From Octopus vulgaris (taxonomy: Eukaryota), in contig OX597836.1 in assembly GCA_951406725.2 (NCBI GenBank), forward strand, positions 24,676,001 to 24,740,000: a stretch of DNA of 64,000 bases. The letters run 5' to 3'. Positions 1-56,800 of the stretch are shown here, piece by piece. The notes below the pieces were generated by a model. The model did no database searches. It worked only from the letters and a program-made list of their open reading frames with translations, and had not been told where the DNA came from. Positions within the stretch are counted from its first letter, which is position 1, and every line of letters begins with the position of its first letter. The translations under genes were made by a program, and so were the position numbers.

Positions 1-897
1 TTCGGCAGAAAAACGTTCCCACAACTACTCTGTCATCTCCAGGAACATCACCCCACAAAAAACAAAAAAAAAAAAGCAAAAAAAAAAAAAAAAAGAGCAT
101 ATATGGGGAATTAAATAAAACCGTGATCGACCCTTAACAGGAAATGATTATATCAGACAAATTATTATGAACAAGTAGCAAATCCACGAGAATCCAAACA
201 GTCACTTTTATCCTTTTATTCTTTTACTCGTTTCAGCCATGCGGCTGCGGTCCTGCTGGAGCACCACTGTGGTTTTTTTTATTTCCTCAGTCTGGGGTAT
301 TTCACATCACCACTTCTGTATGTGCCTTTGTCCCAGCTGTTGGTTCATTTGGTGTATAAGGGAATTTGATTCCGCTGCCCTTGTCTGCACCTTATGTCGG
401 GTTGTTGGTTCATCCGGTATTGTCTAGTTCGATTTTTGCAGATTTCTTAATTTTTGTCGCAGTATTCGAGGTGTGTCCGTACAAAGAAGGAGAAAAGAGG
501 AATAATGACACCTTGTTCTCGGGACCCGAAGGTTCTTAGTATCTAGGAGCTCATCCTACGAACTATATCGACCTTATTGTTGATGGGGGCGCCCCAGCTG
601 AGTTTGTTATCAACAATGACTCCTATGTCTCTGACATTATTAGATGCTATGAGCGGTTCCCCTGAAGGAAGAGAGTATGGTTGTTTTAGCATAGACTTTC
701 TTCCAAAATGCATCAGCTCAAATTTTCCTTCGTAATGTAATTATAAAACCTGTAAATTACTAATGAGTTTGCTTAAATCAAAACATTTTAAACTAAAAAT
801 GAAGACATTTAATGATATGTAAGGTAAATAAACTGAAATTAAAAGAAAAAAAATTGTAAACTTTTTTACTGAAGGCGAATTTTTAATATATTTTCAG

Positions 898-1371
898 ATC
901 GTCAACACTCGGCCCAGTTGCCATTCGCTGAAGCCAGTCGTCGCTTTCTCAGCAACGTCATCAGGGGTGGATCCCTTGCTGGAGATGAAGCAACAAATTT
1001 GAATAGCTTCTCTCGTTCCAGGGACCACAGTAACAACAGTTATATTGTGAAGCACAAAGTATGGCCGGAACGCTTGCTGCTAACAGTCCTTGATGACAGC
1101 CTTTGCGTGATAAGCTCAACACTCGGCTTGAAGACCAAGTTCCTTGTTCTCAGTTTATTGGAATCCCTGTGTGGCAGTACCTTCGATAAGAATGCTCCGA
1201 CTGTAGGTCTTCAGACGTATTCTGTCAAAAGCCGGTTAGTCATGCCTCTGAAGAAGCCGGCAACGAAACACGAACTGCGACACGCTGTCTTATCTTACTA
1301 CACTCATTCTGTGAAACTTCTGCAGCTCGATCGTGCTTTGGACCGCACTGTGTCCATCTTAAATACAACCA
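898..1371 (+). CDS. Internal coding exon of a vWA-domain protein (N-terminal part of the domain); upstream exons not located in this window
   Basis: Acceptor ttttcAG (891-897) and donor GTAAGT (1372-1377) bound an open frame, phase 1 at both ends. The translation LLLTVLDDSLCV...KFLVLSLLESL...TVGLQTYS...MPLKKPATKHELRHAV...QLDRAL follows the vWA pattern (beta-A DxSxS, 'rVGvvqYS', 'fpL', 'l..Ai', 'AL'). Confidence 0.8.
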
Positions 1372-1423
1372 GTAAGTAAAACATTTGTTCATTGTTTTCC
1401 TTTTTACTTTTATCTTCATTTTA

Positions 1424-1580
1424 CGAGGGGGCGCTGAAAAGTTCCTGGATTTAAGGGTGTCGAGAAAGGCCTGGTTGGGGGCCCAACCTTCCGAGTTCTT
1501 ATATAGGGCTTAGAGAAAACTAAGGGACTGCTACAGTATTTTCTTTTAGCCAAAGCCAGAAACTTTCCAGCACCTCCTCA
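1424..1580. mobile_element. Non-autonomous mariner-like element
   Basis: Imperfect TIRs cgagggggcgctgaaaagttcctgg / ccagaaactttccagcacctcctca, with TA flanks. Confidence 0.75.
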
Positions 1581-2108
1581 TATCTTTTGACCTTTGATGC
1601 TGTCTCTTATTATTTATCAATTTAAAGAATGGACAAGATAAAACAGTCTAACATACCATACAATGGCATTGTGCAGGATAATATAAATTGAATACGGGGA
1701 GATAATATAAAGAAAATTGAATTGCAGAATTTTTAAGTAGAAATTTATATGTTTCGATACGAGACGATGTAAATGATGATTTCAGTGGAAAACCCATAAT
1801 ATTGAATCGATCCCAATAGATGGCTGGTGTTTACTTTTTCCGCCGCATTCTTGGCCACGAATTTCTCAGGTGGGTATTGTCAAATAAATAGTTCCAGTTA
1901 TATTATTTTATCGGCTACAGAGGAAAAAAAGACAAACCACCTTTGATGTGATTTGAACGAAGAAACCAAACGTGACGAAATTAAAGCCAAGAGATTATTC
2001 AGGATGCCGTACAAGTTCGGCCATTCAGCATGCTTAAGCTGGTTGCGCATTTGTTTCTATCATAAATCACACATTTTGAGGAGTGGAGAGTATAATCGAT
2101 CAACTACC

Positions 2109-2441
2109 GCATTTTAGGAGCACTCCGTCGGTTACGACGATGAGGGTCCCAGCTGATACGATCAATGGAACAGCTTGCTCGTGAAATTAACGTGTAAGTG
2201 ACTGAGCAATCCACAGACACGTGTACCCCTAACGTAGTTCTCAGGGAGATTCAGCGTGACACAGAGTGTGACAAGGCCGGCCCTTTGAAATACAGGTACA
2301 ACTCATTTTTGCCAGCTGAGTGGACTGGAGCAACGTGAAATAAAGTGTCTTGCTCAAGGACACAACGCATCGCCGGGAATCGAACTCACGACCTTACAAT
2401 CGTCAGTCGAATGCCCTAACCACTAAGCCACGCGCCTTCAC
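2109..2441 (-). mobile_element. tRNA-derived SINE family C with TSD caactacc. Other copies at 17580-17914 (-, TSD agttaacccct) and partial at 11216-11430 and 25670-25875 (+)
   Basis: Head ggcgcgtggcttagtggttagg...gagttcgattccc, followed by tgtgtccttgagcaagacac. Direct repeats at 2101-2108/2442-2449 and 17569-17579/17915-17925. Confidence 0.9.
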
Positions 2442-3626
2442 CAACTACCACATAATTGGTCCTTAAACGATGATAGCAGAAGGATAAAAGATAAAGTTAA
2501 CCACAGTGGAATTTTAACTCAAAACAATATGTTTTGTCCGTCACTCCATTGTGTTTGACTTTCTCCCCGTTTCATCGCTTGAAATATTGATTTCAAATTT
2601 TGGCACAAGGCCATCAAGTTCGAGAGAGGGGTAAATCGTTTCCATCAAACCCCAGTGTTCAACTGGTACTTATTTTATCGACCCCCGAATGAATGAAAGG
2701 CAAAGTCGATCTCGGCAGAATTTGAACTGAGAACGTAAACATGGACGAAATGCCGCTAAGCATTTCGTCTGGCACCGTAACCATTCTGCCAACTCGCCGC
2801 CTTTCATCGTTTAAAATATTGGTTTCAAATTTTGGCACAATGCCAGGAATTTCGGAGAAAGGGCTAAGTCGATAACATCTACCCCAGTACTCAACTGGTG
2901 CTTATTTTATTGATCCCGAAAGTATGAAAGACAAAGTCGACCTCAGTGGAATTTGAACTCAGAACGTGCAGGCAGACGAAATGTCGTCAAGCATTTTGTC
3001 CGGCATGCTAACGATTCCGCCAGCTCGTAGAAATATTAATAGTGAATTCCTACATGGGACACATGGCCTCAAGTTTGGGAGAAAGATATAGTTGATTAGA
3101 TCTACCTCATTACTCAACTCGTTCTTATTTTATCGATCTCAGGAGAACGAAAAGTGAAGTCGACCAGCTTAAGATTTGAACTCTGAACAACTGAATATCA
3201 CTTGCTATTTTCAACCTCATTCCATCCTTTCGGCCTTTCTTTATCTTTCTTGTCGCCCTAAATAAAAATGATTCCGTCTAAGTTAAGCACAAGCTTTGAG
3301 GAAGTGGGGTTAATCGCCTCTATCGATCTTCTGGAGTTGACTAGTACTTTATTTTATCGATCCTGGAGTAAGGAGAGGCTAAGCTGAGATCGGTAGGGGA
3401 ATGATCCGAGAGTGTAAAGTGATCTGAGAGCAAATACTGCAAGACATTTTGTTCGACGCTCTGTTGATTCTGCGAAACTTCTCAACTTTATATTAAAACC
3501 AGCATAAGGCACGGGACTGACCTAGATAAAAAAAAAGATAAAATAACTATTTCTTAGTTGTTTTCTCGAAAAAGGAAGATAACTTTTGATAATTTTACCG
3601 GTTACTATAATATATTGTGACTAATT

Positions 3627-3672
<46 letters not shown>

Positions 3673-4091
3673 GTAATAGTAATAATAATAATGATGATGA
3701 TGATGATGATGATGATGATTATTCAACCGGAAGAAATTGTAATCACAGCATCTGGTTATAGTTTCTCTTACACCCCACTCAGGAAACGAACCATATAAAA
3801 CGTTGTTTACTATCATTGCATAATTAAACACGACTCAATAAGTTTTTCATTTACAATAAAAGAAAAAAAAAAGTAAAAACAGCACGTCGACTGCTTTGTC
3901 CTCGCCATCCCGTGACGTTGGGTTTTACTACAAATGGTAGGGCTGAAACAACTCTGCACATTCCTTCGGATCATAAAATATAGCAAGGAGTGAGATATGG
4001 TCCTGTGTTGTATTTAACAGCAGAACTATCGTGTACTGTATTTGGTGGATATTCAGTGTATAGCCGCAAGCCCTTTACTGGTATAAACTTG

Positions 4092-4197
4092 ATAAGGCAC
4101 GTACCTTATAAATTATGTACCTCATAAAGGACGTACCTCATAAAGACAAACCTCATAAAGGACGTGCCTCATAAAGGACCTATCTCATAAAGCACGG
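4092..4197. repeat. 16-bp minisatellite (cctcataaaggacgta), about 6 units
   Basis: Direct tandem repetition visible in the sequence. Confidence 0.85.
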
Positions 4198-4931
4198 TCC
4201 TACACATAGATATTCCTCTATGTATGCGCTCGATCGGCTATAAATCGCAGCCAAATTTCCTTCGAACCACACTCTGCTACCTAAAATGGTTGGACACATT
4301 AGACACTGTAGTTCTAGATATATTATGGACAGAATGGTCATGGTTAGAATACTTTTGATTATGGCTCTACAGGATCAGAACTAACCTGTGCTTAAACAAC
4401 AAAAACAATACGAATGAGACGATGAAGTAACTGCCAGGCTTTGTTACAGCCTCTATGCAACTATTGTGGATCTGATTATATCACTCTGTGGTCAGTGGTT
4501 CATCTCTTGTCACTGATCTTTTAATCTATCCATGCCCAACACATTTAGTTCTTGTCTAGTTAGAAGTAGGTACGACGACATCGCATTAAACACGACATCA
4601 GATTTGTAAAATAGACATGTGTTTCATCCTGAACCTTCAGTATTGAATCCAATCCAGACAACAGTCGGATAGGCCACAGTCATATATTGAGGAAAGTTTG
4701 TTTCTCATTTGCTTAACACAACAGAAATGCCGACTTATTATTCCTGAGGCTGGAAATCGCTTTTGAACAAAACTGAGCAAAACAAAATAAAAAAATCTTT
4801 AATTTTACAAATTCATAGATTTAAAACTTATAAAAAAATTACTTTTAGGTTTTTTCTTTTTCCTTGATTTTAAGATTTTATCAGCGAGGCATTTCAAAGT
4901 TGACTGAAACTAATAAAAGATACATATAATA

Positions 4932-5343
4932 TACTCTTTTACTCTTTTACTCTCTTATTTGTTTCAGTCATTTGACTGCGGCCATGCTGGAGCACCGCCT
5001 TTAGTCGAGCAAATCGACCCCGGGACTTATTCTTTGTAAGCCCAGTACTTATTCTATCGGTCTCTTTTGCCGAACCGCTAAATAACGGAGACGTAAACAC
5101 ACCAGCATCGGTTGTCAAGCAATGCTAGGGGGACAAACACACAAACACATACACACATACACATATATATACATATATACGACAGGCTTCTTTCAGTTTC
5201 CGTCTACCAAATCCACTCACAAGGCATTGGTCGGCCCGGGGCTATAGCAGAAGACACTTGCCCAAGATGCCACGCAGTGGGACTGAACCCGGAACCATGT
5301 GGTTGGTTAGCAAGCTACTTACCACACAGCCACTCCTGCGCCT
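4932..5343 (-). mobile_element. tRNA-derived SINE family A. Other copies near 19137-19530, 38172-38590, 39100-39494 and 47052-47473 (-), 46263-46642 and 9363-9780 (+), and a diverged copy at 8968-9310 (-)
   Basis: Head with A box tggctgtgtgg and B box ggttcagtccc, an internal CA/TA microsatellite and an (agagtaaa)n tail. Several copies are near-identical and produce the recurrent 'MSSNARGTNT...' pseudo-ORFs. Confidence 0.9.
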
Positions 5344-6311
5344 ATATATGTACGTATAATTACAAATTAACGCAAAACATTTTGTCCGACGCACTAACGG
5401 TTCTGCTAATCCACAGCTCTAATCTAGTGATAATAAATAATGATTTCTGATTGAGACAGAAGACCGATAATTCTGAGGGAAGAGGATTAGTCGATGCCAT
5501 GAGCCATAATACTTGTCTAGTATTCCATTTAGTCCGTCTCAGAGAGAAGAAAGACGAAGTTGGTCACGGTGGAATTTGAACTCAGAATTTAAAGATCCAT
5601 CTAAAAATGCAGCAAGTCATTTAATCCGACTCTTTAGAGATTCAACTAATCCACCATACTATTAATAACAATAATCCTTTCACAAGACCAGCAATTCCGG
5701 GGCTGAGTGGGGTGGGGAATAAGTCGATTATATCGACCCCAGTACGTAACTGCTACTTATTTTATCGGCCCCGAAAGGATGACAGGCAAAGTCGACCTCG
5801 GCGGAATTTGAACTCGGAACGTAAGGAGCTAAGCATTTTATCTGACGTGCAAACGATTCAGCCAACTCACCACCTTCCGCCTTACTAATATTAATTAGAT
5901 GCAAAACGAACAAGAATAGTTAAATAAATAAAACAATAAAAAGCTAGGTGGCTACGAGCAGGAACCCAAATCTTGTTAGCAACCGCAACCCACATGATGC
6001 GTGGGTGGGTGGACCCTAATATTTATTCCTTGTTTCCTTCTCTAACCCGAGAAAGTGACCTTTTCAGCTTGTGTTCTCTCCTTATTTATAGTTTCCTTTT
6101 TATCTCGCTAACGGCTTGTTTATTGACCCTTTCGTAAGGAAGCGGGGAAAGGTCTGTGCGACACCCGTTTGTGTAACCTAACCTTACTCCTTTACGATAT
6201 ACTGTGTCAGTTATGAGTGAAGGAACGAGGAGGAAAGAGAAGAGAAGGATAGTAAGAAGCAAGGGAAATGGGTGATTTAGCATGCCTTCTTTATGCATGT
6301 TATATATAGAA

Positions 6312-6708
6312 CTAGCAGTATCGCCCGGCGTTGCTCGGGTTTGTAAGGGAAATAACTATATAAGCATTTTTAGAGAGTTATAGCAAAAAAATAGCAAAAA
6401 AATGCATTAAAAATGGAAAAAAAATTATGGTAAATTTTTTTTTTAATCGTTGACTCATCGTAGACATTTTTAGAGAGTTACTTCCCTTATATAATAGCGA
6501 AAAAATGCATTAAAATGGAAAAAAATGATGGTAATTTTTTTTTAAATCGTAGACTCATCGTAGACGCGCGCTAATACCCAGAAGGGCTCGATAGGAATCA
6601 CGACTATAAGATACCCGGTTTTGGTTAAACTGCACCGCAAAATGTGGGAGTAGTTAGGAATCTAAATCGTAGGAGACAGACACACAACTTGACTTTTATA
6701 TATAAAGA
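6312..6708 (-). mobile_element. Non-autonomous Helitron
   Basis: The minus strand begins TC after an A and ends with the hairpin cccgagcaacgccggg plus CTAG before a T. Contains an internal tandem duplication of about 100 bp. Confidence 0.8.
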
Positions 6709-9700
6709 TATTTCAGACATAGGCAACCTTTTACGAGAAGCAGGCTGGTTTACAACAAATGTTGCAAATGTTTGTATATTTACGGTAATGTAAGGGACCA
6801 CAACGAAACTTGTGAAAGCGTCAAACTGATAGGATCGTTACCGCACCGGACGAAATATTTGGCGGGCATTTCTCCAACGCTCTTCAATCTTTCATAAGTA
6901 CCAGTTGATCACCGGGGTCAATGAAATAGGCTGGATCTACCCCGTCCTCAAAATTTCGGGCCAAAAAGAATTATACAAAACTTGTAATTAATCCTTTTGC
7001 CGAACCGCTAAGATACAGGGGCATAATCACACCAATACCTATTTCTTTATTACTCAAAAGGGGCTAAACACAGAGGGGACAAACAAGGACAGACATAGGT
7101 ATTAAGTCGATTACATCGACCCCAGTGCGTAACTGGTACTTAATTTATCGATCCCGAAAGGATAAAAGGTAAAGTTAAGCAATGTTGGGACACACACACA
7201 TACACTAATATATATATATATATACAGGACGAATTTCTTTCAATTTCCGTCTGCTAAATCCACTCATAAGACTTTGGGTGACCCAAAATGCCACGCAGTG
7301 GAACTGAAACCGGAACGATGTTGTTGAGAAGCAAACTTCTAACACCTCCATCCTAGTGATGATGTTCATGTTGATGATAACGAAATCGAGACTAAATATA
7401 AAGAATTTGAGGTTGATGTTGATGAAATTTAGGTTGTCAATATCAAAGCTGAGGGGCAAACCGAGTATATCTATATATGTATCAAAAGTAATTGGGTCTC
7501 CGTCGGTTTCAACGATGAGTAATGAGTTGTTCGATCAACCGAACACTCAGTGAATTAATGTATGTGGTACTGAGTATTGCACAGACACGCGCTTCTCCTT
7601 AACGTAATTCTTAGTTAGAAACCGCCTAAGAGCGCACGTGACAAGGTCACCTCTGTGTATGATGTTCACCTGACGGGCTTTCCATCCACTCAGTTTCGCC
7701 CACAACGTATAAGGCTGGAAAAAGTTACAGCAAAACAAACTCGGAAATCAAGGATCGATCCGGGTCTTCCTGATTCAAAGCGAATTCACTATTGCAGGCA
7801 CGCACGTACACACACACACACACATACACACAAACACAAACACACACACACACACACTTATATTATTTCCTTTACATATTTATTTTTCCACAACTGCTCA
7901 CGCCTATTAGTTTGGGCTCCAGGGAGACATCTCAAATACCAGAGACCAAAGTGTTCACTGATATTCGTGAAACTCCGAGTCGTAAGAGATATTAATTTCA
8001 GCTCTACCATATATATTTACACACTGCATCTCTGTTGAGTACTTCTTTCTCTTGATTCTTAACTCACGCATATACACACATATATACACATACATATATG
8101 TGCGTGTGCGTTATCTGCAATGCCTCCCAGTAAGATAATGTCTACGAAAATAAAGATAGGTCATCGGTTGTGTCTGTTGAAAACAACAGTCATTCTATGA
8201 TTAATATAATTATCTCTTTAAATGTCTATTTTGGTCTCAAATAAAGTCTGCTTTAAGAGAGAAACAGCATTTACCAAAGTCATTAAGTATATTTCCATGA
8301 GCAGATATGCTTTACCAATATGGCTTCTAGGTTCAAATCACACTGCAAATTTAAAATAAAAAACATTTAAAAAAGTCAACCATGCCGCCGCTTTATCGTA
8401 TAACTTTGTTCATTTAGCTGGCCCCCAAATCTCTATCATAGAAATCCTTACCATAAATTCCACTAGGCCCCCTCCTCTCCTCAATAATGAGTAGCGTTGT
8501 TTTATGTTAGAGACTCCCCCCACCATTATCATTTTCTTATGGCAGTGACTGGTGGAATCTGTAGAGTATGGTACAAGTTGCGTCTCTTTAGATTCTGGGT
8601 TCAATTCTCACTGAGGTCAAATTTGAATTTCAGCTACCCTGTGTGTTAAAATAAGTCCCAGTGGTGTATTATGATATATTTCATGGACTATGTTCTCTCC
8701 TACAAATTCCTGCTTTATTCAAATTTATGAAATAATCGGAGTTTAACATGCCTTTCAAGTGAGTTTATCAGGGACCGCGTGTTAAACCTGAAGTAAATAC
8801 ATCGTGAAAGAACCGTTTAGTAATAAACAAAACTGTTAAATTCCCTTAAATACTTGGTGTATTATTAAATGGCTATTCCGCGATGCAGTTGCTTCAGATA
8901 TCTTCACCATTGTCATTTACTTTCCCTAACTTATACATATATTATATGTATCTTTTATCTATTATTAATTTCAGTCATCAGACTACGGCCATACTGGAGC
9001 GCCGCCTTGAAGAATTTTCTAGTCGAATAAATCGAGCCTCGTACTTTTTAAAGTACTTATTACCTTTTTTTTATTTATTCTATCGGTCACTTTTGTCGAG
9101 CCGCTAAGTGCGGTGATGGGGGACAAATACACACACAAAGACACGCATACACAAAGATACAAATATATACATCGGGCTTCTTTCAGTTTCTATCTATTAA
9201 ATTTGCACACAAAGGTTTGGTCGGTACGAAGCTTTAGTAGAATGCACCCGCCCAAAGTGTTACGCGGTGGGACTGAACCCTGTACCAAGCTCTTTACTAC
9301 ACAGCCACGCCAACATACGCTCACAGATGCTCGCACACCCATACATTGTCTTAAGCGTATTATGCGCGGGCGTGGCTCTTTGGTAAGAAGCTTGCTTCAC
9401 AAACCACATGGTTCCAGGCCGAGTTTCACTGCTCGGCACCTTGAACAAGAGTTTTCTACTATAGCCCCGGCCCGACCAAAGCCTTGTGAGAGGATTTAGT
9501 TGATGGAAACTAAAAGAATGCCATGATATATATATATATATTGAGAGAGTGAGTGAGAGAGAGAGATGTATGTATGTATGTATGTATGTATGTATGTATG
9601 TATGTATGTATGTATGTATGTATGTATGCCTTTGTGTCTGCCTCCATCCACAGCTTGACAGCCGGCGTTGGTGTAGTTACGTCCCCGTAAATTAACGGTT

Positions 9701-9934
9701 CGGCAAACGCGATCGATAGAATAATTACCAGGTTTAAAAGAGTACATGGCTGCAGTCCAATGATTGGAACAAGTAAACGACAAAAGATAAAAGCGCCTAG
9801 ATGCTGCACCAGAGAACACTAGGACACTTATCCAGTAGAAACACGTGTCGGATTGGAATTTAGTGGAATGTGCAAATTTTGAAAATGTATAATTCTTCAT
9901 TCTTCTTAATGAAGTTTTGATTTTGTGTATATAT

Positions 9935-10145
9935 GGAGGCGCAATGGCCTAGTGGTTAGGGCAGCGGACTCGCGGTCGCAGGATCGCGGTTTCGATTCTC
10001 AGACCGGGCGTTGTGTGTGTTTATTGAGCGAAAACACCTAAAAGCTCTACGAGGCTCCGGCAGGGGGTGGTGATCCCTGCTGTACTCTTTCACCACAATG
10101 GCGGTGCCCCAGCATGGCCACAGCTCAAGAGCTGAAACTGGAAAA
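9935..10145 (+). mobile_element. tRNA-derived SINE family D. Related copies at 33647-33764 (-) and 28570-28860 (+)
   Basis: ggcgcaatggcctagtggttagggc...ggtttcgattc with A and B boxes; shared gaccgggcgttg...tattgagc. Confidence 0.8.
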
Positions 10146-10160
10146 AACAAAAACAAAAAC

Positions 10161-10199
<39 letters not shown>

Positions 10200-10822
10200 T
10201 GCGTACAGGTCAATGTGCAGACATTGACCAGATAACGTTGAGCCTAAGGGTCTGTGAGTCATATCAACCTCTCTATTATGACACGGCCTACCATAGGTAT
10301 TGCCTCACCTCCTTTTGATTAACTTATATAAAAAAAAAATAATTAAACAATTCTTAGTCGGGAATTAATTTGACTCTGTCTCTGGCTCCTACCAGACGTT
10401 CTTCAGGCGATACATATAAAAATGAACAGTTGAAGAACTGTATACTAACAACAGAGAGAGAGAGAGAGAGAGTATCCCGACATGGCGACAGGAGGCCGAT
10501 TATAATGTTGATACAGCACGGAGTAACATCCGTCTATGTCACCGAGTGAAGTTTACTGGGTCGAACTGACACAAGGAAAGATAACGGGGGGAACTGTGTA
10601 ACTTTGTTTGTATTTCCTCGTGCCACAGACGATAAGTACAACTCCTCTAAACTGGATGTCCTTGGGGCAAAGCAAGACTATTTTCGAGTATCACTTTCGT
10701 CTTTTAACTCTTCACTCTCGCTATTATTGTTGTTGCTGCTTTTGTTGTTGTTCCTGCTGCTTTTGTTATTTTTAATCAATTAACACCTTACCCTTGAAAC
10801 TGTTGACCTCATTCTTGAATTA

Positions 10823-10963
10823 TAAGGTTGTCCCAAAAGTTCGTAGAAAGTCTTGGAAAATAATGGTCTTTATTTTGAGGAATAATTTTTGTTGTTTTTG
10901 TTAGTACTTGGCGAGTAAAAATTCAATTTTCGCAAGTGTTTACGAACTTTTGGGACAACCTAA
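10823..10963. mobile_element. 141-bp mariner-type MITE in the vWA gene intron
   Basis: Terminal inverted repeats taaggttgtcccaaaagttcgta / tacgaacttttgggacaacctaa, with TA on both flanks. Confidence 0.9.
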
Positions 10964-11480
10964 TATTATTATTGGTAAAATTTTACCAAAATTTTAAATT
11001 CCTCTGAATTTATTGTATTACAATTTATGTCCAACTCCCGTTTACGATATTTATGTACAGTCTCACATAATGTGTAAACCCTTTGAATGACACGTTTTGT
11101 ATTATGTTTATGAACATCTGTACGAATAAAGAAATGATTGAGTCTAATCTGTCGGTTTTAGCAAGGCGCAGGCAATTAGAGAAGTTTGCAGAGCGATTAG
11201 AATGTGTCCTTCAGCTAGACACTTTATATCACGTTGCTCCAGTCCACTCAGCTGGCAAAAATGAGTTGTACAGCCTGTATTTCAAGGGGACAGCCTTGTT
11301 ACATTCCGTGTCACACTGACTCTCCCTGAGAACTACATTAAGGGTACATGTGTCAGTGGAGTGCTCAGCCACATGCACGTTAATATCACGAACATGCCGT
11401 TCCGTTGATCGGATCAACTGGAATACTCGTGGCCAGCGCGTGCATGTATGCATGCATGCATGTATGTATGTATGTATATA

Positions 11481-11670
11481 AAGGGAAAGTTTACGAAAAT
11501 AAACAAAAAGACGAAGGCAGGTGGAGTACAAACAAATAAATGTATTAGTATAGCGCTCAGGAATAGAAAAAGTCTTTTACGTTTCGAGCCTACGCTCTTC
11601 GACAGAAAGATACACAGAAAAAAACAAGGAGAGAAAAAATGCGTGTAGGAGCTAACGATCTATCATGGCG
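11481..11670 (-). mobile_element. Short hammerhead-bearing element (family with 21841-22020 and 26980-27064)
   Basis: Shared aacaaa...tatta.t...cgctcaggaa block followed by the hammerhead-like motif; abuts a TATG/TA microsatellite. Confidence 0.55.
11573..11610 (-). ncRNA. Minimal hammerhead-like motif with variant core CUGUCGAA
   Basis: Minus strand: tcttt-CTGTCGAA-gagc(gtag)gctc-GAAAC-GTA-aaaga. Perfect 5-bp stem I and 4-bp stem II. Confidence 0.7.
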
Positions 11671-12194
11671 TCCTGACTCCATGCCTTTGTGTCTGCCTCC
11701 ATCCACAGTTTGACAACCGGCGGAAGGAAAAAAAGACACAGCGCTTAGGATTTGCTTGACTCTTAAACTTTGCGAGACACAAAGCACGTTATTCGTAATA
11801 GGAACGGAAGCTAGTTGTCAGGTACGGGTGGTAGAACTCCACACTTCGATATTTGGCGGACTGCAGAAGGTGCATGCTATTCTATTCCAAGATGAGTAGG
11901 CTCTTATCAGCGGTATTTTTGCCAAATCTTCTGCAAGCAGCGACGGACTAGAAATGGTGTATGCTAATATCTACCATAACGATCTACCCCGACTCTCAGT
12001 CGAAAACGCAGACTACAACTAAAAACATATTCCAGCACTGTAATCTTGAAAATTTGAATCAGCTGTGCCACGGACAAGAAGCCGGTACTGGTTCCACTGC
12101 GAATTATAGAGTTTCATGTTAAACTTGTACACTTCTGTCTTAATGGCCGTCCATAAATGATAATTGGCATTTAGACATGTCGTATTCTGCTGCT

Positions 12195-12920
12195 AGGACT
12201 GCATCCCAAGTTGTATGGCTCTAATAGTAATGTCACAGATGGAGAAGAATCCAAACGAGGAGGATATAATAAACAGGTTGAAGACCAAAACTCTACTTAA
12301 CACAGAGTTAAAGATTTTGGCAAAAGTGCTCGATAAGAGATTTGCGCTTGTCGGAGACAGTATAGTAGGATAAACACAAATCTGAGCGATTCCCCGCATG
12401 TCTATGTAGCTTTTGGGGGCCCTTATCAATCTCTGTCTGCTAAACCGCACAACAGGACGCCTATTACTAACTAGTAACTGTTCTAGACAAAGCACGTTTT
12501 TTTAGTCCCATCTTCTAACGTTGGATCACTACAATGTACAGCGGCATTTGTTTAATGGTTAAACTAAACGGCCTCCTATCAGAACCGTTTCGTATCGTGC
12601 GCTCGGTGCCCTAAAGATACCCCTAATTCACCTCTACAGTATGTAATAACGTTAGAGTCTTTTTGGTTGCTGGAAGCGAAGGGCTGTGTCGGCAAGCATA
12701 GAGAACATTATTGTCATGGTGTGTGACACATCGGATATCAAATTGGTTGGTACTATTTTAGAAAAGCACGAGGAAATATTAGGATTACATGTTAGTAGGG
12801 ATTATTCAACGGCTTATAACTCATCGTCAGCAGGGATAAAGTTACGTGGGATGGTGGTTTCTGTTACTGAACTTAGGGTCCAGTTAAGCTGCTTTGGATT
12901 TGTTTCGAGCCAAATCTTAC
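12195..12920 (+). mobile_element. Decayed L1/Tx1-clade LINE reverse transcriptase fragment
   Basis: TLLNTELKILAKVLDKRF...TQI*AIP and VKLNGLLSEPFRIVRSVP*RYP correspond to the RT motifs 'ITLLNxDYKILAK' and 'SVRQGCPLSP'. Contains stops and frameshifts. Confidence 0.8.
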
Positions 12921-13537
12921 GACTCTTTATGTACAGTGTTCAAATCCCGCCGAGATGAACCTTGCCTTTCATTCTTCTGGAGTCGATAAAATAAAGAATC
13001 ACTCAAGTACTGGGGTCGATATAATCGACTGATACCTTCCACCAAAATTTCTAGCCTTCCCCAAGAAACTGTTGTTGTTCTTGTTGTTGTCGGGATTGGC
13101 AGAATCGCTAGAACGTCGAACTTGCGGCATCCGTCCGTCGTCTCTTCAAGTTCTGAGTTTCAAATCCCACACAGGACAGCCTCTGCCTTTCATCCAGTCG
13201 AAGTCGACGTGAAAAAGTACCAGTCATACACTGGGGTTGGTATAATCAACTTACAACCCACCAAAATTTGTTTAACCTGTACATATGTTAGAAATTATTG
13301 TAGTAGTAGTAGTAGTAGTAGCAGCAGCAGCGGCAGCACCTACCAGCAGCTACAAAATCCCATCACTGTCACTATCAATGCAATATCATCATCATCATCA
13401 ACATTGCCATCATCACTTTTTTTTCTTGTATTGTTTCTCTTATTGTATTTTGTTGTATCATTTGTCTTGTTGCTTGCAGACAGAATTCTGTTCCTTTGTG
13501 ATTAAGAAATGGGTAATATAACTATATATATATATAT

Positions 13538-13915
13538 AAATGAAAGAAGGGAGTTGAACGACGATTTAACAAAATTCCTTTATTCTCGACATATGTTTCG
13601 AAGGCTGCATATTCCTAATTTCGAAGGAATAAGGAGTACATTATGCCACCTTCTCATCAGGAAAAACAAGGAACTTATGTCAACATCAAGATGAACAAAA
13701 ACTTTTAGATGACTGCCCACACGGAGCCCATAGGAATTTTGTTAAATAGTCGTTCAACTCCATTCTTTCATTTATTTGTATTGAAAAAACACACAAATTT
13801 CCACACGAAAGCACGTGATTTCTGCCCTTGGCATGTAGCTTCAACCGTGTTTTTCTGACGTGAATTTGCTACCCAGGTATCGGTTAACCGAATTATCCAT
13901 ACTAAGATAATTCAT
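13538..13915 (-). mobile_element. Penelope-like pLTR remnant with an internal inverted repeat enclosing the ribozyme, between TA microsatellites
   Basis: About 13538-13579 (aaatgaaagaagggagttgaacgacgatttaacaaaattcct) is the inverted repeat of about 13732-13773. About 13735-13910 is the reverse complement of about 20735-20910. Confidence 0.65.
13577..13671 (-). ncRNA. Type I hammerhead ribozyme, Penelope-type, canonical core
   Basis: Minus strand: ccttgtttttc-CTGATGA-gaaggtggcata...tatgcagccttc-GAAA-catatg-TC-gagaataaagg. Stem I, a long stem II and a palindromic minimal stem III are present. Predicted GUC cleavage between 13588 and 13587. Confidence 0.85.
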
Positions 13916-13922
13916 TCAACTA

Positions 13923-13968
<46 letters not shown>

Positions 13969-14789
13969 AATTTCCCCTGATAAGAATAGAACTTGTGATG
14001 TTGTTTCCGCGGTTTTCATAAATGAATAAATAACAGGCGTGGTTTGGGATTGAGAAGCACTTGGGTGTACAGCTATAGTTGCAGTCTTTACTGCAAGCAA
14101 AATACACTGCACATCTATTTTTATTTGTTGTATTACTCAGAGAGAGGAAGGGATGCGTGCCATGGTCGGTGGCGACCCCTATTGTGTAACTGTGGTGGAT
14201 GGTTGAGGGTATTAACGAGGATATTGTTTTTGTTGGGGCGGGTTGTCAGCGATGGCCGCTTGTTTGTTTGAAACATGTGCTGAGAGAATGTGCTATTACT
14301 GATTGCTAGGAATGATACAAAAATGCATGTTGTTTTTGTTCACATACACATGTACATATATGCATACGTGCATACATAGATATTGTTTGATGTGGGTTGC
14401 TTTTATGTGAGAAAAGCATTTTTCTATTAATAAATTTAACTATTTAATTTCCACTAATAATTGTCTCATATTTAGCTTCAGTTTCTGTCGGAAATATAAA
14501 CAAATTCGTTATAAATAGATTGCAGAGTAACCGCTGGAGATTTGCTTCTTTTTTCGTTTCAGTTGTTTTTCTTAAAAAAAAAAAAAAATGTGATTCACCC
14601 GAGTTAAAGGAAATAAGAGTGAAAGTCAAAAACTGCTTCGTTAATATTGTGTGAGTGGATGAGTGGATAATAAATAAATAAGTTAAGAAATATAGGAAAC
14701 TGTTGAATTTAGGGATGAGGCAAGGAAATGCGCACAATCAAATGTGTGGATAATTATTATAAAAAAAAATATTAAAACTGACTAATAGT

Positions 14790-15195
14790 TAGATTAGTGG
14801 GTCAAAGAGGAAATACGACCAGCTATGTTTGTGGGCTGACGAAGACATTCTGACGTTTTGGTGGCATGTAAATAGATAAGGAAATACCGATTCTTTGGTC
14901 TGTGGGAAGAAAAGGAAATACCTAGAGCTATGTCTGTTGGTAAACAGAGGATATAGTTAATAAGCAGACGTCTGTGTAAACATGGAGATTGGTATGGCCA
15001 ATGCTGTGGTCTGAGAAGAGAATAAATTCGGTTAAAGCCGCGGATAGACAAGGAAACAGTGTGGGTTAAGTACGTGGTTGAAAAATAAATGCTTTTATGA
15101 AAATCTGTGGGTAAACAAAGAAATATCTACAACTATATTTGTAAGTGGATAAAGTAATAAATATCACTGAATTTCTGAGTAGATAAGTGAAATCT
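14790..15195. repeat. Degenerate array with a period of about 34 bp (about 12 units)
   Basis: GGAAATA-like motifs start at about 14809, 14843, 14880, 14914, 14949, 14984, 15018, 15052, 15085, 15119, 15153 and 15187. Approximate consensus tctgtgggtagacaaggaaata plus about 12 variable nt. Confidence 0.7.
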
Positions 15196-16473
15196 TTGAG
15201 ACTGTTATGATTTGCCATAATTACACCGATTCATGAACTCTGATAAGGAATAGAAATGTGTATAAAATTTCCCACTCTCTTTGACTGGATGATAGACAAA
15301 AACCACTCGAGTGAATTTAATATGGCTAATGTTGAATTTGAAATCTTTCAGCTGTGGGAAAAAATTGAGCAAGGATGGATTGCCGGACCAGGGAATAAAC
15401 CCTGCTAAGTTATAAATGATGGAAGTTAATTAAGTCAGGGTTTACAGACTGAGAGATGATGAGTTTAGACTAATTGGATAAAATCAGACATAGTCAGCTG
15501 CAAGAGTAAAGAAGGAATTCTAACATCTCGATATTTGAATAAACCAGCTTGAAGTATATTAACGCTAAATGTCTTAATACTAACACGAAGCATGTTAGAA
15601 CAATGATTGGCAGTGTTTTGGGAACTCTTGGAAAAGTAGTGCCTCATCACTAGGTTTACCATTCTGTCAGTCTGCTGTAAAAGTGACAACATGCTAAGGG
15701 AACACTGTCTCAGACTGTCACTTTTATGTTGCATTAGACATGTACCGCAGTACAAGTCTATGGATCGATCTATATCACATTCTGCTGGCCACTTCATCTC
15801 GCGTCGGTCCCAGAAAACCACATGGACAACAACGTGTACCATGCTTCCCTCGATAAACAAGACCATGTCCCACTCCTTGATCAAAGCAGCCTTTGATTTG
15901 CCATTAAAGGACATGTGAAAAACCTCTTCTATTCGTGAAGCAGATACGTCAACTTCCTCCATGGCTGCTATTAGACAAATTTCTCGGGTAGAGAGACACA
16001 GTGAGTCATAGGTGCTTCTCAGACTGGACATTGAGAAATCTAAAATTTCTTGTGTGGACACGACCTTAGCAAAGCTGCGATGTTTTGTTGTTTGTTTAGC
16101 AGATCAAAATCACACTCATTCTTATCAAAATCCACAGAAATATAATTTTTGCTTCTTCATAATAATGTGTGCTCTGTTTTGCAATATTTTTGCCTTTTCC
16201 TTCCTTTTTTTTTTTTTGTTTCTTTTATGTACAGCAGGCAAAGGTTTTTACTTGGAGGCAACGTTAACGTTTCTCGTTAAGTTAAAATATCCCTTTTTCT
16301 TTTCCAGTCTAGTCGAAAAAAATTCAACAAATTGCTTGCCTTTTTTCAAACAGTTCAAATGACTCGACAGAGAAATGGGGATTCAGATCAGAAAAAAAAA
16401 ATCTACAAAAAATAAAAAGTTTTTAAACAAGTCTTGCTACAGTAAAATTCACAGATAATAATGATTTCTAATA

Positions 16474-16535
<62 letters not shown>

Positions 16536-16567
16536 TCAATATTTTTATTTTCTTTTTCTAATTTTAG

Positions 16568-16857
16568 TGAGAAAGAAGAAATACTGGCGCAGTGCAGTGT
16601 TGTTAGTGTTAAGTTCTTGGAATTACTGCGATGAAAATACTCTTGGAGAAGCGGTACTTATCAAAGAGCATTCTGACGTCTATGTTCTTCTCATCGGACC
16701 GGAACCGGATTCTACCCAAATAGTTTGCTTCTCGAGCCTGGCATCGCAACCTATTCAAGACCACTACATCAGGCTCCCGGATTCGGAGACTCTAAATAAG
16801 TTCATTGCAAAAGTTCTTGTAGCCCAGTTCAAAAACACGTTCTGTTACAATCAATGA
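16568..16857 (+). CDS. Terminal coding exon of the same vWA-domain protein
   Basis: Polypyrimidine tract plus tttTAG acceptor (16566-16567). A(1371)+TG(16568-16569) keeps the frame. RSAVLLVLSS...EAVLIKEHSDVYVLLIG...LASQPIQDHYIRLPDSETLNKFI...FC matches the vWA C-terminal half. Stop TGA at 16855-16857; ATTAAA at 16901. Confidence 0.78.
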
Positions 16858-20250: not shown

Positions 20251-20302
20251 ATATGGCTTAAAGTTTCACGGGCTCGTAAGATAAACCCATCTCATCAGAT
20301 AT
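20251..20302 (-). ncRNA. Degenerate hammerhead motif (GCC instead of GUC at the cleavage triplet)
   Basis: Minus strand: atat-CTGATGAG-atggg...cccgt-GAAAC-tttaa-GCC-atat. It overlaps a 28-bp perfect palindrome. Confidence 0.5.
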
Positions 20303-20674
20303 CTGATGAGATGGATTGTTTACTTTGATGTTGTTACTTGTAGTAATAAACTGACGGATTCCCAGGCAACATCTATATATTTAACGCTGTTGACACCACC
20401 GGATTGAATGGTACTGCCCAGGTGTCGAAACCATAGTGCTATCTGTTTGGCAGCGGATGATGAGGATACACATTTGTATTTGCTTGACTGTGAATTTCTT
20501 ATATCTTAGTCTCCATATTCTGAGTTGTCCTTCATTCTTGTAAAATGGAAAGTGTTTGTGGATTCATAGTCTTTGGGAATCACTTACATTGGTATTGGTT
20601 GGCTTTCTTCAAAGGGAATCTTATTAGGATTAGACAATGCTTATTGATGTCTAGTCTTGGGAAGTTTCTGTGAC

Positions 20675-20710
<36 letters not shown>

Positions 20711-20729
20711 AATAGGTGAATGTATTATC

Positions 20730-20966
20730 CTATGTTTATCGTCAGCATGGAAAATTCGTTTAACCGAAACCTCGGTAGCAAATTCACGTCAGAAACACGG
20801 TTGAAGCGACCTGTCCAAGAGTAGAAACTCCGGGTTCACGTGCAGAAATTTGTGTGTTGTATATGAATAAATGAAAGAATGGAGTCGAACGAAGATGTTA
20901 ACAAAATTCCTTTACTCTCGACATATGTTTCGAAGACAACATGTTTTCATTCCAAAGGAATAAAGG

Positions 20967-20970
<4 letters not shown>
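20730..20970 (-). mobile_element. Second, truncated copy of the same Penelope-like element
   Basis: Contains atgaaagaatggagtcgaacga...ctcgacatatgtttcgaag, the GAAAcatatGTC half of the ribozyme, and is cut by (TA)n at 20971. Confidence 0.6.
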
Positions 20971-21017
<47 letters not shown>

Positions 21018-33813: not shown

Positions 33814-34463
33814 GCATACATATATATATATGTATTGAATAACTGGACGGAAGCCGTGGGGAGTTGCCACATTTTCGGAAATTTTACTTCAAAACTGGAA
33901 AAATCTAGCTATCATGCGAAGGAAGACAACATATATTTGTATGTGTAACGTAACAGTTTAGAAAAAGAACATTGGTTTCATATCTAGCGTGAATTAGGCA
34001 TCTCTTCAGTTTCTCTAAACGATAACTGTTCTCTGCAAAGAATGTTTTTTTTTTTAAAAAAACACACAAGAACGCCGGTGATAGTTCAAGAAATATTCCC
34101 GGCCTGCCACCTAAAACCAATCCCACTAGAAACACCCTACTTTCTTTCTCCTCACCTCTCTCTCTCTCTAAGCACTGCTCAGTTTTCCTGCACGTATTCT
34201 ATATAAACCGCATCAATCATATTCGTCTCGGAGGGCCTCCAAAGGTCAATCTTTCACCTGATTATTAAACCAAACAGAAACGAATATAACATTATGTATG
34301 GGTTTTAAATGAATATCGTGCTTCCGAGACGATGTAATTGCGACAGTTTCTACACAAAATCGCAAGGAAATTCACTTGTCAAACAAGTTCGAGATGCAAT
34401 ATGTGTGCGTGTATGTGTGTATGTATATACGTGCGTGCGTCTGTGCGCGCGCACAAGAAGAGG

Positions 34464-35891: not shown

Positions 35892-35904
35892 TGTATATAT
35901 ATGG

Positions 35905-36330
35905 ATAAAAATCAAATATGCAGTCAACATCATGGCGTTTGGTCTGATCACAGGTAATGGCGACGTTATGCCCCATTCATCTTCCTATACGGTCTTATAC
36001 TCAACACGGAGGCCTACATCAAGTACTTGGAGGAGTTAATGCTGTCCTGCGTCAAGAGGATGGCTACAGGAAGACCCTATGTCTGGCAACAGGATTTTGC
36101 ACCATGCCACACAAACAAGAGAACCCAGTCATGGATGTCAGACAATTTCTGCGACCACATCACCCCTAATACCTGGCCACCTAACTCCTCAGACTGCAAC
36201 CCCCTTGATTGTTGTGTGGGATGCAGTTGAGTGAGAGGCCAACAAAACTCCTTGTGACACCAATGATGAACTGACGGCAAGGATTAGAGCAGCATTCACC
36301 AACTTTAACAAGGAGACCGTCCAGAAGCGT
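35905..36330 (+). mobile_element. Second fragment of the same Tc1/mariner family
   Basis: YVWQQDFAPCHT...WPPNSSDCNPLD; colinear with 47770-48180. Confidence 0.85.
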
Positions 36331-47569: not shown

Positions 47570-48362
47570 GTTTTTTATTTTGTCGACTACACAGTAGAGT
47601 AGTGTCAGTTGGGCATCGTCTGCGAGGGAAAACGCCACAACGACGCAATTCGCTCTGCCAGAAACTTGGAAAAGACATGCTGTACTGCTTGGTGTTTGCG
47701 ACAGAAGCTGCAATACGAACATTTCAGCTTGTTTGGGTGTCAATCTGAGGACATGTACCGAGAGTGAAAAAAATCAAACATCCAATCAACATCATGATGT
47801 TTGGAGTAATCACTAGTGATGACAATGTTATGCCTCCATTCATCATACCATACGGCCTTACACTCAACATCAAGTGCCTGGAGGAGCTAGTGCTGCCCTG
47901 GGTCAAGAGGGTGGCTGCTGAAAGACACCATGTCTAGCAACAGGACAGTGCCCCATGCCACACAAACAGGAGAACCCAGTCATGGCTGTCAGACATTTTC
48001 TGCGACCACATCACCCTTAACATCTAGCCACCTAACTCCTCAGATTGCAACCCACTTGGTTATTATATGTGGGGCGCAGTTGAGCGAGAGACCAACAAAA
48101 CTCCTTGCAAGAGCAAAGATGAGCTAAAGACAAGGATTATAGCAGCATTCACCAACTTAAACAGGAAGACAATCCAGAAGAGTTGCAGGAGATTCCGAAG
48201 TCGTCTGGAGACCGTGGTTGAAGCCAATGGAGATTTTATTGAATAAATTTACTCTTTAGTATTTCAAGATATTTCTATGTAATTTTGGTAAATATATCAG
48301 TTAAAATAAGTTGTCAGTGTTATTTTCCTTTTTGCATAACATAGACGATAGTTTATTCACCG

Positions 48363-52497: not shown

Positions 52498-53543
52498 TCA
52501 AGCTTGATAAGCCTGATTGTCGACTCCTTGGGGTGGTGCTCCTTGGGTTGCATCTCCTTGGGGTGGTGCTCCCTGGGGTGGGTAACCTTGAGGTGGGTAG
52601 CCTTGAGGTGGGTAGGCGCCTTGGGGTGGGTAGCCTTGTGGTGGGTAGCCTTGTGGTGGGTAGCCTTGTGGTGGGTAGCCTTGAGGGGGTGGCTGTGGGT
52701 AGGCAGCCTGTTGTGCTTGCATTTTCTGCATCATTGCCATCATTTCTTTCATTTGTGCAGCATCAACGGATTCACCGCCGCCGCCGCCTTCGGATGGTGC
52801 AACTTCTGCTTCGGCATCGTTAGCATCTTCGCATTCTTTCTCATTGAACTGACAACATGTCAACAACCATGGGAATGTGTTTTGGATGGCCTCTCTGAAC
52901 TTTGGATGGGAAACAGAGTAGACAATTGGGTTGTGGATAGCTGAAGCTTTAGCAAACAGGACAGGCAATTCAGCTGCATAAGGAGTAACCCATTCAGCTG
53001 GCCCAAACTGTGCAAGAAGAGCGATGACGGCGTATGGAGACCAGGAGAGCATGAATTGGGTAATAATTACCATTGAAATTTTGGCAAGTTTCATTTCAGC
53101 GCTCTGGCCAGCCTGTGCCTTACGCAATTCTTTGGCATTCAACCTCTTAGCCATGGCAGCCATTTCCTTTTCGTGGTTGGATACAGACATGACAATGTTG
53201 AAGTAACAGAAAGCGATGATAACTACGGGCAGCATGAAACCCATGAAGTACATGCACAAGATAAAAGATCTGGTATTAGAATCAGTAGACAGGTAATCAA
53301 AAGAGCAAGATGTAAGAATACCTTCAGGGACGTATGCTCCCCAGTTGAAGACGGGGCCGACAGCCCAAACAATGGACCATATCCACACAAAGATAATCAT
53401 GAGGAAAGCTCTTCTATGGGACATTTTCTTGGATGCCGCCATAGGTCTACCGATGACATTGTAACGATCGATGGAGATCATGGCCATGGTATTAATTGAC
53501 ATGAATCCGAAGATACCGCCCAGCAAACCATAAAGTTGACAAG
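52498..53543 (-). CDS. RHO: Rhodopsin, last coding exon (TM3-TM7 plus PPQGY-repeat tail)
   Basis: Acceptor ttctAG (53545-53544). Contains C109/C187, DRY(133-135), E181, Schiff-base K306 (LFAKASA), NPIVY, HPK, a CC palmitoylation pair and the cephalopod (PPQGY)n tail. Spliced CDS is 185+137+1046 = 1368 nt = 455 aa plus stop. Confidence 0.99.
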
Positions 53544-54403
53544 CTAGAAAGAGAGGAAAGAGAGAAAAAACAGTGAAAACAAGAAATACAAATAGACATG
53601 GTGAGGTAGAGATAAGGAGGAAAGATGAAGATAATTAAAGTAGGTGGGGACTAAATAATTGGTAAAAACATTGTTTAGACATCAATCATTTTGAAGGTGC
53701 AGATCGATGAGGATGCAGCTACAAATAGTAGATGTAATATATTGGGTTTTAAAAAATTCCTTTGAATAGAAAAAAAGGCTGAAGATTATCTGCGAGCTCG
53801 ACACTTCATCTTCTATATGGAGACGACAATGAAGCCTCTTATGTGATAGTTCTACGGAAGATACATGGTTGAAGCCCGGCAATAACTTTCAGACTTTGTT
53901 TTCATTCGAGGGTTATTTAATCCAATATATTACATATGCTTCATAGTTGTGTTCATTGTGAAAATCATTTCAATTACGTTTTCTCAATGTAAATGTATTA
54001 ATTAGTGTAAGGATATTAATTACACTAAAAATATTATTCAAAACATTAAAACTTGTTTCGTACATAAGTTATATTTAATGAACTAATATTTTAGCCAACA
54101 TGAATCGCCGTAAAACTGTTGTGTGTTTAAACAGCTAAATACTGTAAGCATTATAATAGTCTATTGTTAACATTATAATGCAATACACTATCAGCTTCAC
54201 TAGATACAATAAATCATCGATTATATTTCGATACAAATAAAAGCAAAACGAATTATTAAACACTCGATATTCTGTGATTTGATTTTAACTTTACGACAGG
54301 TATTTTACTGTATTTCTGTCACAGAGCCCTTGACCAGACGTGCTGTTGTTTCATTTATAAATAACACCGGGTCTACTGGAGATAAGGGAGCCTCTGTGTG
54401 ATA

Positions 54404-54544
54404 TAAGGTTGTCCCAAAAGTTCGTAGAAAGTCTTGGAAAATAATGGTCTTTATTTTGAGGAATAATTTTTGTTGCTTTTGTTAGTACTTGGCGAGTAAA
54501 AATTCAATTTTCGCAAGTGTTTACGAACTTTTGGGACAACCTAA
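54404..54544. mobile_element. 141-bp mariner-type MITE in a rhodopsin intron
   Basis: Same TIRs and TA flanks; one substitution seen relative to 10823-10963. Confidence 0.9.
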
Positions 54545-55268
54545 TAGCTTGATCTTTTAAAAATAATACCTAAATTATTCTGAAATTACTCCTTTGTTTT
54601 AGAAAAGGACATATTGAATAATGTGATTTTGGATATCCTTCAAATAGAAAAATGACGAGATAATCACAGCCGGAATGCCTTTTAATGTAAGTGTACTCGA
54701 CTAAGGCTGACTTGGAACAAAACAATATCAGTAACCAGGTTTTCTTGAACCAAGCCTGTTTGTGATTGCTTGACTTAAAAGCAGCAGTCGATTCTCCCTT
54801 AAAGCGTACACTACCATCCAAGATTAGATTGTATTAGATCGGATGGCTTTAGATGCAGTGTTTTTCATCAAAGGTGTGCTCCATTCAGAGCTAAGTAACA
54901 GGCAGGTGTTCTGATATAGTCGCTCTACTTGCACCCAAACACGCTGGAGATCTTATACTGCCGGTTTAAGAAGGAACAATGGATAATCGAATTCATGCCA
55001 TCTTATTTTCAGGTACATGAACTCGATTAGAATGATTTCGCTCATCGAATTGTTGGATTAGGTCTGACCAAAGAGCCTTAACAATAGTAATCATATCTCT
55101 GTCACCAACATCAGCATGTCTTTCCGTCATATAGGAACAACATCTCAGCCTCCTTCAAAGGCCTTGTGCCAAAATTTGAGACCAATATTTCCCAGATTTC
55201 TAGATCGTTAAGGGTAGCTAATGCAATGAAGCCCAGTATGAAGTGGAAAAAGGAAAATAAATACTTAC

Positions 55269-55405
55269 CAACTTTACCGAAAATCCACTTTTTCATAAAC
55301 GCCGATATCGTTTTAAGCGGAAATCCATTAATAGCTGAGAAAGACAAATCAGACATAGCGAGATTGATGATAAACATGTTAGCCGGGGTCTGAAGAGATT
55401 TCGTC
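55269..55405 (-). CDS. RHO: Rhodopsin, second coding exon
   Basis: Acceptor ttccAG (55407-55406) and donor GTAAGT (55268). The 137 nt encode TKSLQTPANMFIINLAMSDLSFSAINGFPLKTISAFMKKWIFGKV (TM2); phases 2 and 1 match the neighbouring exons. Confidence 0.99.
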
Positions 55406-56615: not shown

Positions 56616-56800
56616 TTGGAGAAGAGATAGATTACAACGCCATTACCGAAGATTCCAATGATGCCAACGACACCAATGAAAATACCAACGGAATAGTAGA
56701 CGGCATCTGGGATCGGATCGAACTTGGCCCAATGAGGATGGATGTCAACGGTTGGATTATACCACCATGTCTGGTTCACTAACGTGCTTGATTCGACCAT
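56616..56800 (-). CDS. RHO: Rhodopsin (visual r-opsin), first coding exon
   Basis: ATG at 56800. MVESSTLVNQTWWYNPTVDIHPHWAKFDPIPDAVYYSVGIFIGVVGIIGIFGNGVVIYLFSK is the octopus rhodopsin N-terminus and TM1, with an N-glycosylation sequon NQT. Donor GTAAGT at 56615-56610, phase 2. Confidence 0.99.

Follow-up and report, generated by a model that had tools for sequence, protein, structure and literature searches.

The window analysed here is a stretch of 64,000 nucleotides of Octopus vulgaris (contig OX597836.1), and the features discussed below are collected in Table 1. The last coding exon of a vWA-domain gene was overlooked by the Pfam scan and then identified by protein search, where it shows 100% identity to vWA-domain proteins of Octopus sinensis and O. 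vulgaris. The previous exon was placed using tblastn with octopod vWA proteins, and the splice signals (GT at 1372 and AG at 16566-16567) delimit a last intron of 15.2 kb (1372-16567) which contains an insert carrying a hammerhead ribozyme motif. Since the vWA gene lies on the plus strand, with exons on both sides of the insert, and the motif on the minus strand, the hammerhead is intronic and antisense to its host, as an earlier note on this DNA had held. The host protein is divergent, with just 5 relatives in the protein search, all named ones being octopod. Elsewhere the window includes the octopus visual rhodopsin gene and, at 35904-36330 and 47766-48183, a fragment of a DDE (Tc1-like) transposase in two decayed copies that are 80% identical.

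Table 1. Positions of the hammerhead, the insert that carries it, a second family copy and the genes of the window
Feature	Position	Strand	Basis or remark
Host vWA-domain gene, upstream coding exon	894-1371	+	tblastn; 5' edge approximate
Left (TA)n tract, part of presumed insertion target	13523-13537		sequence
Left arm: 5'-truncated repeat piece with whole hammerhead	13538-13733	-	self-BLAST and contigs
Inverted-repeat arm 1, overlapping distal stem I 3' arm	13538-13579		self-comparison
Type I hammerhead including 16-position stem I	13572-13676	-	sequence and fold
GAAA, palindromic stem III and GUC triplet	13588-13599	-	sequence and fold
Stem II, 54 nt	13600-13653	-	fold prediction
Core box CUGAUGA (C3-A9)	13654-13660	-	sequence; strict motif scan
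Inverted-repeat arm 2, same family segment again	13732-13773		self-comparison and loose ends
Right arm: 5'-truncated piece, no hammerhead core	13732-13925	+	self-BLAST
Right (TA)21 tract	13925-13966		sequence
Host vWA-domain gene, last coding exon	16568-16857	+	protein search and splice sites
Second family copy	20708-20972	-	self-BLAST; 81-84% identical, truncated inside stem II
Octopus visual rhodopsin gene	52498-56836	-	three coding exons, proline-rich XYPPX tail

Read along the minus strand, the motif consists of the stem I 5' arm, CUGAUGA, stem II, GAAA (13599-13596), CAUAUG (13595-13590), UC (13589-13588) and the stem I 3' arm, and the CUGANGA, GAAA and NUH boxes stand in type I order. 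The stem III palindrome ACAUAUGU spans 13596-13589, and the predicted cut, after GUC, falls between 13588 and 13587, the same site that the earlier note had given. Its description of the motif is borne out in the other respects as well: the full core (CUGAUGA, GAAA and GUC) is present on the minus strand; stem I, said to be complementary at about 12 of 16 positions, has 12 Watson-Crick and 2 G.U pairs, that is 14 of 16 positions paired, with a 2x2 internal loop; and sequence and predicted fold agree on a palindromic stem III (CAUAUG) and a 54-nt stem II with an internal hairpin. In the predicted fold, stem II has 6 bp and, past a G.A mismatch, another 5 bp; a 12-nt bulge then leads to an apical hairpin of 5 bp with an 8-nt loop.

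The motif is real, as confirmed by a structure-aware scan of the window, where there were 2 loose matches and the sole strict match was this hammerhead. No strict match occurred in 200 block-shuffled windows and the motif was found in none of 20,000 Markov-simulated 1-kb stretches, while its fold stability has a z-score of -3.4, with 1 of 200 shuffles equally good. An Rfam scan of the window gave no match at the gathering threshold, and at E-values up to 10 no hammerhead family was among the 9 matches. A second CUUCGAAA within stem II was considered as part of a shorter hammerhead and rejected, given an unpaired stem III and variation of its site 13621 within the family.

Folding figures are equilibrium predictions and not measures of activity. 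In the monomer, stems I and II form with pair probabilities mostly of 0.8-1.0, stem III has a pair probability of 0.01-0.02 and the active fold a probability of 0.008. The minimum free energy structure of the two-copy co-fold is exactly the double hammerhead (-65.2 kcal/mol, versus -57.8 kcal/mol for two monomers), with stem III pair probabilities of 0.79-0.94. Stem III is thus predicted to form only between two copies and the hammerhead is likely to be dimer-dependent, in line with the suggestion in the earlier note that motifs of this type work as dimers.

A second copy of the same repeat, located 7 kb away between TA tracts at 20677-20707 and 20971-21017, clarifies the architecture of the insert. 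It begins in the interior of stem II and continues unbroken past GAAA, the palindrome, the cut site and a 42-bp segment up to the 3' end, and this unbroken order indicates that the 388-bp insert is made of two pieces of one repeat, each truncated at its 5' end, which meet by these ends at a head-to-head junction (13732-13733) with a 2-nt AG overlap. The left arm ends about 50 nt past the cut site, where it merges with the (TA)n tract; the right arm starts 8 nt after the cut site and reaches the family 3' end, which is also the 3' end of the second copy, and comparison of both window copies places the cut site about 210 nt before this shared end. The 3' ends of the two arms therefore differ by about 150 nt, which exceeds the 30-40-bp PLE (Penelope-like element) tail and speaks against membership in that group. 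As the 42-bp segment is present in both arms, it appears as an inverted repeat (40 of 42 positions identical), whereas the second copy has none.

The inverted repeat is therefore a by-product of insertion and not an enclosure. The repeats of about 42 bp within which the hammerhead was said to lie do exist, however stem I overlaps one of them, its distal eight 3'-arm nucleotides (13579-13572) being inside that arm, and the idea of an enclosing design has to be given up, as the repeat represents the overlap of two truncated copies and competes with stem I. Likewise, the element of about 380 bp between TA tracts does have TA on both sides, but it ends at about 13925 and not at 13915. Stem I pair probabilities are 0.77-1.0 without the upstream repeat arm and 0.00 for every pair when the arm is included. 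Since stem I is lost to the overlapping inverted repeat when the fold is at equilibrium, the ribozyme copy at 13538-13925 is probably an inert relic; the repeat would hinder this copy, and stem I may have a brief co-transcriptional window in which to fold.

Contigs from four of 24 listed public runs were compared with positions 13300-14200 of the window. Two runs that may be RNA also contain contigs of the family; as contigs reveal neither strand nor transcript ends, they are not taken as evidence of expression. Loose contig ends before 13732 run into the 3' half of the hammerhead, and those behind 13733 run into new upstream sequence, indicating that on either side of the junction the sequence extends further in other copies. 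Joints from left to right arm at other breakpoints account for 12 among the 15 listed of 31 (depth 30-116; the sides of the joints are short, 20-30 nt), so that joins of this head-to-head kind are recurrent in the family. Two DNA runs (X1 and X2) that carry different species labels give a summed contig depth of 2x10^5 to 1.3x10^6 across the element and of 30-35 on the flank; the ratio of element to flank is 6,100-29,600 in X1 and 6,500-41,700 in X2, with medians of 10,800 and 12,900, which should be taken as a rough order of magnitude (about 10,000) and not as true copy number. The deepest-covered part of the family 3' region, 13858-13888, is well conserved in the second copy and carries a CACGTC/TGACGTG motif and a possible splice donor (AG/GT); this segment could be a promoter or a protein-binding site.

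Variation among family copies bears on whether the fold is maintained. None of the 15 variable positions listed for the 105-nt motif, from a table with 19 more rows, falls in its 19 core and stem III bases (P = 0.04); 5 lie in loops or the bulge, and the change at 13647 creates a pair. Among the listed positions, single changes at 13585, 13604, 13612 and 13648 keep the pair, and 13649 together with 13604 turns G-C into A-U, probably a compensated change, the U being present in the second copy. Those at 13615, 13650, 13665 and 13673 break a pair or have no partner change, and two of them are common, with the variant at 13650 making up 5-44% of depth depending on the run and that at 13665 39-69%; for 13665 the second copy carries the matching partner change, which is absent from the listed positions. 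The earlier note had looked to covariation of the stems for a verdict on the ribozyme, and the outcome is mixed: of the 9 listed changes at paired positions, for which linkage between changes is not given, 4 keep pairing and 1 probably restores it (5 of 9), and 4 break it or lack a partner. The window copy has minority alleles at several positions, and at 13648 most of the family has a C-G pair. Taken together, the pattern of variation is suggestive of selection on the hammerhead fold.

The sequence, predicted fold, family structure and abundance of the insert are shown by the analysis, and its relationship to known elements is drawn from its architecture, since no RT or GIY-YIG open reading frame is linked to it. 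On this basis, membership in the Penelope-like elements is likely, and the insert can with reasonable confidence be viewed as a dead, doubly truncated insertion of the 3' end (pLTR) of an octopus Penelope-like retrotransposon with a very high copy number. Three traits of this group are found: close to the 3' end there is a hammerhead whose stem III is palindromic; truncation at the 5' end is combined with an inverted copy that is itself 5'-truncated, both at this locus and at the recurrent joints; and insertion is into (TA)n, a bias of the Hydra, Naiad and Neptune type, which is observed for 2 of 2 window copies and matched by loose contig ends that also finish in TA. No RT or GIY-YIG domain was detected by Pfam in 279 window ORFs of at least 48 amino acids chosen by complexity and 17 picked by hand, where the only clear matches were for rhodopsin; this is expected, as both window copies are truncated. 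No full-length copy that would display the partial tandem pLTR-ORF-pLTR arrangement of PLEs was seen. About 30 nt of the family sequence further upstream was recovered from contigs, and one upstream frame contains a short K-E-x-L-I-I stretch which may resemble endonuclease C-termini. Searches for long family copies gave none in metagenome contigs (two patterns) and none in viral contigs, and 4 matches in prokaryote genomes, one of them inside a transposase-like gene, were discarded as chance matches of 19-21 nt.

PLEs are reported to make up 6.83% of the O. vulgaris genome in 190 families, with ribozymes unmentioned in the accessible portion of the report (PMC13282606), and the repeat family at 13538-13925 may well be one of these. 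Six short motifs of the element have no occurrence in the accessible part of the supplement of PMC8557442, where line breaks could hide a single motif; this absence from the published consensus set speaks against the PLE reading. Identity with the published Naiad_Ovul, Naiad_Obim, Naiad_Omin and Hydra-1_Obim was rejected, as the motifs are absent there and the 3' ends differ by eye. Also rejected was the possibility that the cephalopod Naiad "half cores" represent this motif: in the published 3' ends of Naiad_Ovul, Naiad_Obim and Naiad_Esco, GAAAC precedes CUGAUGA.

Comparison with known systems, within the portions of the cited papers that were accessible, places the hammerhead close to those of PLEs. 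PLE hammerheads have been described with palindromic helix III and weak dimer cleavage, mostly in single truncated copies (PMC4209133). Those in the pLTRs of C-terminal EN+ PLEs (Penelope/Poseidon and Neptune) have in common with the present motif the full core, G10.1-C11.1, the palindromic helix III, predicted dimer dependence and dispersed single truncated copies; however, their helix II is 6-8 bp with a small loop, as against 54 nt with a bulge and hairpin here, their helix I is 2-5 bp, as against 14 pairs in stem I, and the extra base between positions 9 and 10.1 is missing here (PMC4209133). Reported traits of PLEs also include truncation at the 5' end, an inverted and likewise 5'-truncated copy attached there, a bias towards (TA)n and a hammerhead near the 3' end (PMC8557442). 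Hydra-clade hammerheads, including that of Octopus bimaculoides Hydra-1_Obim, resemble the present one in octopus host, (TA)n, palindromic stem III and a location 100-200 nt before the 3' end, but there is no sequence match and their stem II plus loop measures at most about 24 nt by eye (PMC8557442). Long spacings similar to ours, about 48-53 nt between core boxes, occur in the spike-moss elements PLE-X1_sMoe and PLE-X1_sTam, which differ in being plant, EN-minus, 28S rDNA-targeted and of unrelated sequence; in the table of that paper, 2 of 34 hammerhead rows have a long stem II region and are flagged as non-canonical, the others being short (PMC8557442). A search of the open-access literature for hammerheads in octopus or cephalopods returned PMC8557442 and a twister paper only. 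A further search for a long or extended stem II variant found none described in the open-access literature among the best 20 of 165 matches. Dimeric PLE hammerheads were reportedly treated by Lunse et al., who may list long-stem variants.

If the Penelope-like assignment is correct, the parent would be an autonomous PLE that carries the hammerhead in its pLTR, about 210 nt away from the 3' end of the element. In a tandem transcript, two palindromes would come together as an 8-bp stem III, with the stems I exchanged, and such a dimer may cut after GUC, probably slowly or with the help of protein. The element endonuclease would nick DNA within a (TA)n tract. Priming of reverse transcription on both strands would yield a pair of short cDNAs, begun at the normal 3' end and at an internal AU-rich site, respectively, and their joining head to head at the 2-nt overlap would turn the segment copied twice into the 42-bp repeat. 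In a lizard PLE, the RNA is reverse-transcribed from an internal start and both DNA strands are cut and extended, a mode of priming that fits two arms with different 3' ends; in the same system in vitro, hammerhead cleavage is assisted by protein and dispensable for insertion (PMC11167929). In this insert the ribozyme would be a passenger: it is present singly, it lies antisense to the pre-mRNA of the host gene, and any transcript of it would be misfolded by the repeat.

The family had also been proposed to be either Penelope-derived or retrozyme-like, and of these the PLE-type hammerhead in an octopus repeat favours the former, whereas the latter is weaker, neither of the two window copies being tandem. 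Under the retrozyme reading, a non-autonomous unit of about 400-500 nt would be transcribed in tandem, cut by the hammerhead, circularised and re-inserted into (TA)n by a PLE protein acting in trans. We consider this improbable, even though several points speak for it. No ORF was found in the window; the right arm begins 8 nt past the cut, near the 5' end that a cleaved RNA would have; and the known unit of at least about 390 nt is within the 150-450 bp of animal retrozymes, which are tandem repeats (PMC7229834). Moreover, the non-LTR retrozymes of coral, mussel and salamander are likewise small non-coding repeats with a type I hammerhead, thousands of copies and a 2-bp stem III with tetraloop, however they form head-to-tail tandems giving circular RNAs, while here we see single or inverted copies in (TA)n (PMC7229834). 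Against it, the family shows PLE traits in its fixed 3' end, its head-to-head joins and the varying extent of its 5' truncation into TA; in addition, the upstream loose end is unlike the 3' end, and stems I and II do not have the canonical 6-bp/4-bp geometry.

The remaining alternatives concern the inverted repeat and the host gene. In a MITE-like or hairpin RNA element, terminal inverted repeats would enclose the ribozyme and present it on a long stem; the very stable 261-nt fold (z = -10.3) would agree with this, and TA flanks would suit a Tc1/mariner-type target. Yet the repeat is confined to the left part of the element and missing from the second copy, the junction points differ between copies, and the long stem is predicted to destroy stem I, so that this reading is largely refuted and extremely unlikely. 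Co-option of this copy as a regulator of the vWA gene, by way of an antisense RNA that cleaves itself or of a double-stranded pre-mRNA hairpin (e.g. as an A-to-I editing substrate), also appears very unlikely to us: the insert does lie in the vWA intron and the 42-bp repeat can presumably pair in the sense pre-mRNA too, but this is one of roughly 10,000 copies, it holds minority alleles (13648 included) and nothing shows the insertion to be conserved at the vWA locus.

With the insert read as a PLE remnant, the basic finding is an expected one, since hammerheads in PLEs are already established, one octopus family included; the novelty is the long bulged stem II, which has plant precedents. This stem II escapes Rfam here and probably short-loop descriptors too, and hence PLE hammerheads may be undercounted, and some PLEs said to have none may in fact carry one. 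Being young, abundant and rich in variants, such a family would also be a good system for asking what PLE hammerheads do. A bolder proposal, which we hold to be doubtful, is that octopus retroelements harbour an overlooked subclass of long-stem-II hammerheads, comprising the roughly 10,000 copies of this family and, by one decayed example at 61408-61305, a second, unrelated family. Their stem II insert, bulged or branched, would then have a function of its own and gate cleavage, as a protein-binding site or a substitute tertiary contact, and Rfam models and the usual descriptors would miss the subclass. In its strongest form, the family would be a PLE-mobilised, circle-forming retrozyme active in octopus tissues.

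Altogether the 64-kb window contains three or four PLE hammerhead remnants. On the minus strand at 33830-34095, the 3' end of Hydra-1_Obim with its hammerhead (CUGAAGA at 34009) was recognised by eye against the accessible text of PMC8557442, with an inverted fragment of that element and (TA)n after it. An unrelated hammerhead-like motif at 61295-61415, also on the minus strand, has CUGAUGA and the palindrome ACGUACGU, its stem II measures about 63 nt and includes two inner hairpins, and it shows U.U at 10.1-11.1, as in many Hydra-clade motifs. Its fold has a z-score of -1.6, with 14 of 200 shuffles equally good, and it looks decayed, as the register of stem I is shifted by one base and the surrounding region prefers a different fold. 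The boxes CUGAUGA and GAAAC also occur on the plus strand at 60804-60840, where stem II is short and stem I absent; this could be another decayed hammerhead. About 240 bp from the second family copy, a plus-strand segment (20385-20470) matches by eye the consensus 3' end of Naiad_Ovul/Naiad_Obim in the accessible published sequences, and just upstream of it lies a short perfect palindrome (20287-20314) with CTGATGA on both strands.
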